A stretch of DNA of 64,000 bases from Pyrinomonadaceae bacterium. Its GTDB lineage: Bacteria; Acidobacteriota; Blastocatellia; Pyrinomonadales; Pyrinomonadaceae. Location: the NCBI GenBank assembly GCA_041497335.1, contig JBGQGG010000028.1:7586-71585 (forward strand), given 5' to 3'. The position numbers and the translations under genes were made by a program. Below the pieces are notes generated by a model that was not told where the DNA came from, made no database searches, and saw nothing but the letters and a program-made list of their open reading frames with translations. Positions 24,181 through 24,825 of this stretch are shown piece by piece (the stretch's first letter is position 1; every line of letters starts with the position of its first letter).

Positions 24181-24825
24181 ATGATTAAGAGAGTTCTCAG
24201 CTTCGGACTCATGCTGATGGCGGCGGGCATCGCTGCCGCACAATCTCAATCGCAACCGCCAGCTTCGGCTCCGGCATCGCAACCGCAAACGCCAGCTGCG
24301 GCTCCGGCCAAGGTCGCACCGCCGGTGCCCCACACCAGTTTGAAGGTTGGCCAACCAGCGCCGGACTTCAATCTGGCAAGCACCATTGCCGGACCGGACG
24401 GAAGGTCATTGAGGTACAAGCTTAGTGACTTCAAGGGCAAGAAAAACGTCGTGCTGGCCATTTACGTGCTGGCCTTCACTGGTGGTTGAACGAAGGAAAT
24501 GAAGGCGTATCAGGCTGATATCGCCAAATTCGAAGCGACCGATACCCAGATTTTCGGCCTCAGCGTAGACAGCGTTCCCGCCAACCGCGAATTCGCCAAA
24601 CAGAATGGCATTACTTTCCCTTTGCTCAGCGATTTCAAACGCACCGTGGTAAAGGACTACGGCGTCTTCAACGAAGAGCAGGGCTTTGGGAATCGCGCGA
24701 CCTTCGTGATCGACAAAGACGGGATCATTCAACACATTGACGAAGGCAGCGTGGCGATCGATACAACCGGCGCCGCCGACGCGTGCAACATCCTGACACA
24801 CAAGAAAGCAACGACGCCGCAGTAG
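24181..24825 (+). CDS. secreted AhpC/TSA-type peroxiredoxin with in-frame TGA at 24487-24489 (candidate selenocysteine; otherwise a pseudogene)
   Basis: ORFs 24181..24489 and 24499..24825 share one frame: ...[24 protein letters not shown]... The TGA sits where Prx proteins carry the peroxidatic Cys (compare Bcp here, TPGCTKEA). Confidence 0.6.
24496..24531 (+). promoter_or_regulatory. candidate bacterial SECIS-like hairpin
   Basis: Upper stem 24504-24511 with 24517-24525 (GGCG/CGCC plus UAUC/GAUA, bulged U at 24521), loop AGGCU. Lower stem GAA/UUC. The upper stem starts 14 nt after the TGA. Confidence 0.35.

Follow-up and report, generated by a model that had tools for sequence, protein, structure and literature searches.

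Does the TGA at positions 24487-24489 of this stretch of DNA end a gene, or is it read as an amino acid? The stretch, hereafter the window, comprises 64,000 nt of contig JBGQGG010000028.1 from a Pyrinomonadaceae bacterium, and the codon interrupts what is otherwise a single open reading frame (ORF) for a peroxiredoxin on the plus strand, the strand on which all features of this gene given below lie. The first-pass annotation, made from the letters alone, proposed that selenocysteine (Sec) is inserted at this codon. Comparative analysis supports that proposal through conservation of the TGA, a covarying hairpin downstream of it and constraint at synonymous sites. We consider 24181-24825 very probably a genuine gene for a Sec-containing peroxiredoxin, exported and AhpE-like, with a functional selenocysteine insertion sequence (SECIS) element.

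Translation of 24181-24825 reproduced the proposed gene structure. ORFs 24181-24489 and 24499-24825 form one frame of 214 codons, running from the ATG at 24181 to the TAG at 24823-24825, whose sole internal stop is the TGA at 24487-24489 (residue U103). When Cys is put at that stop, the joined product matches Pfam AhpC-TSA (PF00578) over the full profile (1-124 of 124 positions; residues 56-186, 24346-24738; E 3.8e-35; 121 bits against a cut-off of 26); the peroxiredoxin domain therefore runs across the TGA, in keeping with the complete AhpC/TSA protein first described. The codon falls at the peroxidatic position, as had been claimed, and lines up with the corresponding Cys in the Bcp paralogue encoded in the window (17103-17579) and in the 72 Cys-type sequences among the best 120 database homologues. 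The active site reads T100-G-G-U103. Within this T-x-x-U motif, Thr100 (24478-24480) is Thr in 80 of 81 orthologues and Ser in the remaining one, and Arg172 (24694-24696), the conserved catalytic Arg of peroxiredoxins, is Arg in all 81 (column +86) and does not vary in alignment A1 either. Gene callers split the gene, as anticipated: in three public assemblies the same contig carries it as pieces of 102 and 108 aa.

Orthologues were sought in one genome for each bacterial species; 80 loci encode one, all of them in Acidobacteriota and 46-86% identical to the query. About 30 belong to Pyrinomonadaceae/Pyrinomonadales, and the rest to Blastocatellia, Chloracidobacterium, Terriglobia, Bryobacterales, Acidiferrales and unclassified metagenome-assembled genomes (MAGs). 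Of these 80 genomes, 79 have TGA as the catalytic codon and one (L060) has TGC, and the exact pattern of TGA plus hairpin recurs in at least 120 metagenome contigs. The first-pass annotation had reasoned that relatives carrying TGC and no hairpin would speak against Sec; the outcome is the opposite, with TGA and hairpin kept together in 79 of 80 species. It had also noted that the gene bears no other lesion, and this extends to the relatives: all 81 assessable copies are free of disabling mutations, remaining open over at least 45 codons ahead of the TGA and at least 90 past it. Averaged over pairs, the differences at codon positions 1, 2 and 3 are 0.23, 0.18 and 0.59 upstream and 0.33, 0.25 and 0.62 downstream, a divergence pattern that shows purifying selection on both gene halves and therefore indicates a translated, selected protein on either side of the TGA. 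When 3,860 in-frame TGAs flanked by open frame were scanned over all loci, the peroxiredoxin family alone was recovered; the other TGA clusters were rejected as selenoprotein genes, being off-frame artefacts or neighbouring genes that share the frame.

Some loci show further peculiarities. Two Sec-type peroxiredoxin copies occur in each of L032, L048, L049 and L056 and in the metagenome loci L097, L106, L116 and L174; in L056, L097, L106, L116 and L174 the TGAs of the paired copies lie ~590-680 nt apart, in a tandem arrangement. One record named 'uncultured Heliomicrobium sp.' (L035) contains a Sec peroxiredoxin of acidobacterial type (64% identity to the query), and its contig is probably mis-binned or mislabelled. 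Near the peroxiredoxin gene of an Acidobacteriota MAG (L055), 15 tRNA genes are packed into ~3.5 kb (10588-14137).

The hairpin proposed at 24504-24525, with its bulged U, was recovered as described. It begins 14 nt 3' of the TGA and consists of 9 bp with the bulged U at 24521 and a GGC loop at 24513-24515, which becomes AGGCU when the closing A-U is left unpaired. The extended SECIS-like element (24496-24531) places a 3-bp lower stem (24496-24498/24529-24531) and an internal loop below this upper hairpin. Comparison was based on an alignment of 75 sequences from the TGA to +57 (alignment A2). In the core hairpin 94.8% of cells are paired, against 18-48% when, as a control, the 3' arm was slid by 1-3 nt. 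The G-rich apical loop, in which G24513 is invariant in the 75 sequences, starts 23 nt after the UGA, a suitable distance under the bSECISearch model. Covariation, suggested in the first-pass annotation as a check on the hairpin, was found at two stem pairs: 24507-24522 is GC in 56 sequences, AU in nine, CG in three, UA in one and GU in one, and 24510-24518 is UA in 66 and CG in nine. The covariation score was reached by none of 500 column shuffles. At the level of aligned sequences, these compensatory changes show a hairpin that is both conserved and covarying, and 24504-24525 is a predicted SelB-binding, SECIS-like element. The lower stem of the extension is 97% pairable over the 75 sequences; because its variation consists mostly of G-U wobble changes, with one G-C, it is compatible with the alignment and not proven by it.

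Codon usage over the hairpin points in the same direction. Codons +8 to +10 are exclusively CAG (80/80), GCT (69/69) and GAT (71/71), with a synonymous entropy of 0, and across codons +5 to +12 the divergence at third positions stands at 0.22, compared with ~0.6 elsewhere in the gene, where codon choice is nearly free. Judged from these synonymous sites, the hairpin is under RNA-level constraint and dictates the peptide AYQADIAKF of the Sec forms, which makes it a clean natural case of an RNA element constraining protein sequence.

Comparison of Sec and Cys forms separates the effect of the codon from that of ancestry. Cys-type orthologues of Bryobacterales-type Acidobacteriota (FYPAAFTGGCTKEM; e.g. 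P0047 and P0063/L060) are 55-62% identical to the query and share its length, signal peptide, C-terminal Cys and catalytic Arg; unlike the query, they have TGC or TGT at the catalytic codon, keep the canonical Pro of the PxxxTxxC motif and have lost both the hairpin and the AYQADIA peptide. All Sec forms possess the hairpin, those of Bryobacterales type included (as a C-G variant), whereas the diverged Cys forms L060 and L217 are without it and read AYQLGLDKF instead of AYQADIAKF; the Cys-form peptides at this position vary (AYQLGLDKF, AYGSDLAKF and others). Among the sequences compared, the hairpin tracks the codon and not the clade. One Cys form with TGT, P0068 (L215:1501-2037), retains the hairpin sequence cgtaccaggctggtatcg and adjoins the Sec form L071 in a rough neighbour-joining tree; it appears to have switched from Sec to Cys recently, its SECIS persisting as a relic. 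More broadly, the Cys forms are nested among Sec forms in that tree, which suggests Sec-to-Cys conversion and would make the family an example of Sec/Cys interconversion with a relic SECIS. A further sequence, P0001, has Cys in an otherwise Sec-type context (YVLAFTGGC...AYQADIA) and nests in the Sec clade; it either records a genuine conversion or comes from a source in which U is written as C.

Several results weigh against the selenocysteine reading. The folding energy is unremarkable compared with shuffles (z = -0.5 over 60 nt starting at the TGA and -2.3 over a 62-nt stretch), and Rfam, searched at gathering and at permissive thresholds, yielded no match to a SECIS family, only a chance snoRNA match. 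A single sequence cannot show more than chance; the comparative data are decisive, and folding energy was dropped as uninformative evidence. Set beside the SECIS of fdhF, the hairpin has a loop of 3 nt (GGC or GUC) rather than GGUC, carries its bulge on the 3' side and holds the loop ~5 nt farther from the UGA. The protein, too, departs from the canonical pattern: three of the four residues of PxxxTxxC(U) plus Arg are present (Thr100, U103 and Arg172), and Val96 replaces the Pro. This position is Val in 70 of the 81 Sec forms, Pro in five, Ile in four and Ala and Thr in one each; among the 72 Cys forms in the best 120 database homologues it is Pro in 71, the exception, P0001, having Val. The loss of Pro in Sec forms is also a testable hint as to how selenium alters active-site requirements.

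The Sec-decoding machinery was sought with ARAGORN and by tblastn with the SelA, SelB and SelD proteins of Escherichia coli and an acidobacterial SelA. Adding to the points just listed, no selA, selB, selD or tRNA-Sec gene was found in the 64-kb window and ~15 kb of flanking sequence (7-8 kb at each end), nor in 1.18 Mb of sequence surrounding the 80 orthologues, nor in 120 metagenome loci totalling 0.63 Mb; the sole tblastn matches for the Sel proteins were weak GTPase hits. Linkage of the sel genes to the peroxiredoxin gene is neither required nor expected. Searches starting from the Solibacter SelA (supplement of PMC1794560) revealed abundant SelA homologues in assemblies of Bryobacteraceae, Terriglobia, Terriglobales and other Acidobacteriota; again on the adverse side, they found none in a MAG that also carries the peroxiredoxin and none tied to a Pyrinomonadaceae genome. 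Selenocysteine use is documented for the phylum: S. usitatus has SelA, SelB and a U-containing FdhA (PMC1794560 and supplement), and PMC12013277 includes Occallatibacter riparius among the Sec users.

That no canonical Sec machinery was found in the reachable sequence of the source genome would also fit recoding of the UGA as Cys or Ser by a suppressor tRNA, either a selC*-type tRNA-Cys(UCA) acting with a SelB-like factor and the hairpin or an acidobacterial allo-tRNA. Models for both have been described, namely tRNA-Sec-like allo-tRNAs in Acidobacteria, which are possible nonsense suppressors, and a delta-proteobacterial selC* tRNA-Cys with a UCA anticodon encoded beside a selB-like gene (PMC5389517), and Cys at the site would make an active enzyme, as the 72 Cys-type homologues illustrate. 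Yet TGC or TGT would serve for Cys without any cost of recoding, and the TGA and hairpin are nevertheless retained throughout the species set apart from one genome. SelA serves Sec synthesis specifically and occurs widely in the phylum, and no suppressor or otherwise unusual tRNA was found near any copy in the genome and metagenome loci. We regard suppression by such a tRNA as improbable. A different objection is that the codon is a sense codon, Trp or Gly as in translation tables 4 and 25, and the databases seem to say so: 40 of the best 120 homologues (P0002-P0034 and others) have Trp at the catalytic site, in FTGGW entries. The DNA behind one of them, P0005 (L092:323-868), has TGA at the site, and the deposited protein is reproduced only by translation table 4, a Mycoplasma-type code, so the Trp entries are best read as mistranslated selenoproteins, an artefact. 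Moreover, TGA ends 15 of the 39 long ORFs of the window, and the standard code therefore applies; Trp, besides, cannot replace a peroxidatic residue. A sense-codon TGA has hardly any probability left.

Two alternatives remain. The TGA is one substitution away from TGC and TGT, and gene callers treat the gene as broken, as they would a recent nonsense pseudogene of a Cys peroxiredoxin; but the same TGA is shared by species of several classes, no second lesion breaks the frames, purifying selection acts on both halves and a conserved hairpin follows the codon. On the strength of the codon's conservation, the open frames and the selection on both sides, we treat the pseudogene as excluded for all practical purposes. 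Alternatively, the locus might make two polypeptides, an exported N-terminal one of 102 aa and one of 108 aa from the ATG at 24499, which assemble or act separately, or its hairpin might drive read-through at a low level with a standard amino acid. An ATG does stand four codons past the TGA and both pieces are called as genes. Codon +4, however, is Leu in 65% of orthologues, so the C-terminal half has no conserved start, and no ribosome-binding site precedes the ATG at 24499. The C-terminal piece would, moreover, be without signal peptide and catalytic residue, and the Pfam domain is continuous over the junction. This arrangement appears very unlikely. Taken with these comparisons, insertion of Sec at U103 remains the reading we favour.

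The remaining features of the encoded protein bear on where and how a selenoperoxiredoxin of this kind might act. Residues 1-20 (24181-24240) form a predicted signal peptide: the n-region is basic (K/R), a hydrophobic core follows, and cleavage is predicted at an A-x-A site (AAA), before Q21. Export was called by a heuristic based on these three features; by the same test they are present in 74 of the 78 orthologues whose N-terminus could be read, and a lipobox-like Cys occurs in some, which are probably lipoproteins. To that extent, the suggestion that the peroxiredoxin is secreted is borne out by heuristic signal-peptide features. Between signal peptide and catalytic domain lies a linker rich in Pro, Ala, Gln and Ser (residues 21-50, 24241-24330), which is confined to the nearest relatives (L001-L003, L006, L008 and similar loci) and missing from most homologues. 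At the other end, Cys202 (24784-24786) sits in a C-terminal extension that reaches past the stretch alignable to AhpE. Since this Cys is invariant in the 81 Sec forms (column +116) and also present in Cys forms, it is a candidate resolving cysteine. Upstream of the gene, a Shine-Dalgarno-like AAGGAG (24167-24172), read from the sequence, stands 8 nt 5' of the ATG, and a consensus scan picked out a promoter-like TTGTCA and TAAAAT separated by a 17-nt spacer (24114-24142; 10 of 12 matches), 39 nt 5' of the start codon. The scan gave one site versus 0.6 expected, and this hexamer pair might act as a promoter.

We infer the following route, in which the identity of the inserted residue, the dependence on SelB, where the protein resides, what Cys202 does and which reductant serves the enzyme are all taken from what is known of peroxiredoxin chemistry and of Sec decoding in bacteria. 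With a ribosome at the UGA (24487-24489), the hairpin at 24504-24525 would recruit SelB with GTP and Sec-tRNA(Sec); Sec would be inserted in place of termination and translation would proceed to the TAG at 24823. The signal peptide would send the full-length protein across the inner membrane, where U103, held in position by T100 and R172, would reduce a hydroperoxide through its selenolate and be converted to selenenic acid. Cys202 may then resolve the selenenic acid to a selenenylsulfide, from which a periplasmic thiol-disulfide oxidoreductase would regenerate the enzyme. A speculative candidate for this reductant is an exported SurA/DsbA-like protein with a CSAC motif, encoded by the convergent gene at 27851-29443.

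A DsbA-like gene adjoins the peroxiredoxin gene in 10 loci and is the only neighbour that recurs; a search of the loci for a conserved operon partner showed no strong synteny. Just upstream in the window are genes for MsrP/MsrQ, which carry out periplasmic methionine-sulfoxide repair (21284-23016), a linkage seen in one other locus only. With MsrP/MsrQ and the CSAC protein flanking the selenoperoxiredoxin gene, this is an envelope redox neighbourhood. Two GC-rich palindromes, CCACCCGCGTAAGCGGGTGG and CCACCTGCTCACGCAGGTGG, lie at 24026-24045 and 24080-24099, between a methyltransferase gene and the peroxiredoxin gene; the pattern has two matches in the window versus 0.06 expected, and the palindromes could be terminators or a small repeat element. 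Farther away, 4184-16498 is a purine-catabolism neighbourhood, as labelled by Pfam annotations of the same contig, with genes for Mo, Fe-S and FAD subunits of xanthine-dehydrogenase type, an amidohydrolase, an allantoicase, an OHCU decarboxylase, a transthyretin-like HIU hydrolase and a protein with a urate oxidase N-terminal domain. Tandem paralogous GWxTD-domain proteins of ~540 aa, each with a signal-like N-terminus, are encoded in the same frame at 34382-36007 and 36122-37729.

This family, found in at least 79 species genomes and in at least 120 metagenome contigs, is for the most part missed or misrepresented in databases, owing to split calls, mistranslation to Trp and the lack of an NCBIfam model that reaches its cut-off. 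The findings suggest that common soil Acidobacteriota put selenium to use in an exported enzyme, which would bear on the selenium demand of soils as well as on envelope peroxide protection.

Among known systems, the family itself is not new, as the first-pass annotation had acknowledged: TxxU peroxiredoxins matching PF00578 are listed among the bacterial selenoprotein families (PMC1794560, PMC13188914), and their prototype, PrxU of Eubacterium acidaminophilum, is given as experimentally verified in the account of it in PMC13188914 (citing Sohling et al. 2001). The best NCBIfam match of the query is the PrxU model NF040737, at 79.7 bits against a cut-off of 270, and the query is therefore a relative of PrxU rather than its orthologue or equivalog. 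Both have the AhpC/TSA fold, Sec at the peroxidatic position of T-x-x-U, the catalytic Arg and a coding-region SECIS directly downstream; the clade of the query differs in its predicted signal peptide, in Val for Pro (70 of 81), in the invariant C-terminal Cys and in its acidobacterial hosts. PrxU is a cytoplasmic clostridial protein.

Two other groups of thioredoxin-fold selenoproteins match PF00578, the peroxiredoxin-like thiol:disulfide oxidoreductases (UxxC/UxxU) and the thiol peroxidase Prx-SUH (CxxU) (PMC13188914). The query has T-G-G-U, with neither CxxU nor UxxC, and scores 31.8 bits with the Prx-SUH model against a cut-off of 298. Exported selenoproteins of the thiol-oxidoreductase kind have been predicted previously.

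Bacterial SECIS elements are described by the bSECIS model (PMC9312934). Like them, of which that of E. coli fdhF is an example, the predicted element is a coding-region stem-loop just past the UGA, with an invariant loop G and a bulged U. Its apical CAGGCUG resembles the apical sequence of fdhF, CAGGUCUG.

Among characterized peroxiredoxins, the AhpE-type subfamily comes out as the closest by similarity to PDB entries. The nearest solved structures are those of M. tuberculosis AhpE/Rv2238c (E 9e-25; mature-protein residues 30-166), and AhpE-type chains account for each of the first seven distinct PDB sequences (E 9e-25 to 2e-23; six labelled Rv2238c/MT2298 and one 'AhpC/TSA family protein'), ahead of Bcp and Prx1 types. 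Shared segments include LAFTGIC in AhpE versus LAFTGGU here, FPLLSDF in both, and NRGTFVVD versus NRATFVID. AhpE, a one-Cys enzyme, differs in having Cys in place of Sec, in being cytoplasmic and in being without the C-terminal extension that bears Cys202. A literature search in one collection found no description of a Sec-containing AhpE-like peroxiredoxin or of an exported acidobacterial one. It is possible, though we would put it at somewhat less than an even chance, that these genes form a phylum-wide and previously undescribed clade of exported AhpE-like selenoperoxiredoxins, periplasmic or lipid-anchored, marked by VxxxTxxU and by a SECIS of their own that forces AYQADIA, in which Sec is ancestral and has repeatedly reverted to Cys. 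In that case the abundant and largely aerobic soil Pyrinomonadaceae, along with other Acidobacteriota, would need selenium for peroxide defence of the envelope. What is already known is the TxxU selenoperoxiredoxin as such; what varies here is the predicted export, the Val that replaces Pro, the invariant C-terminal Cys and a SECIS sequence of its own.

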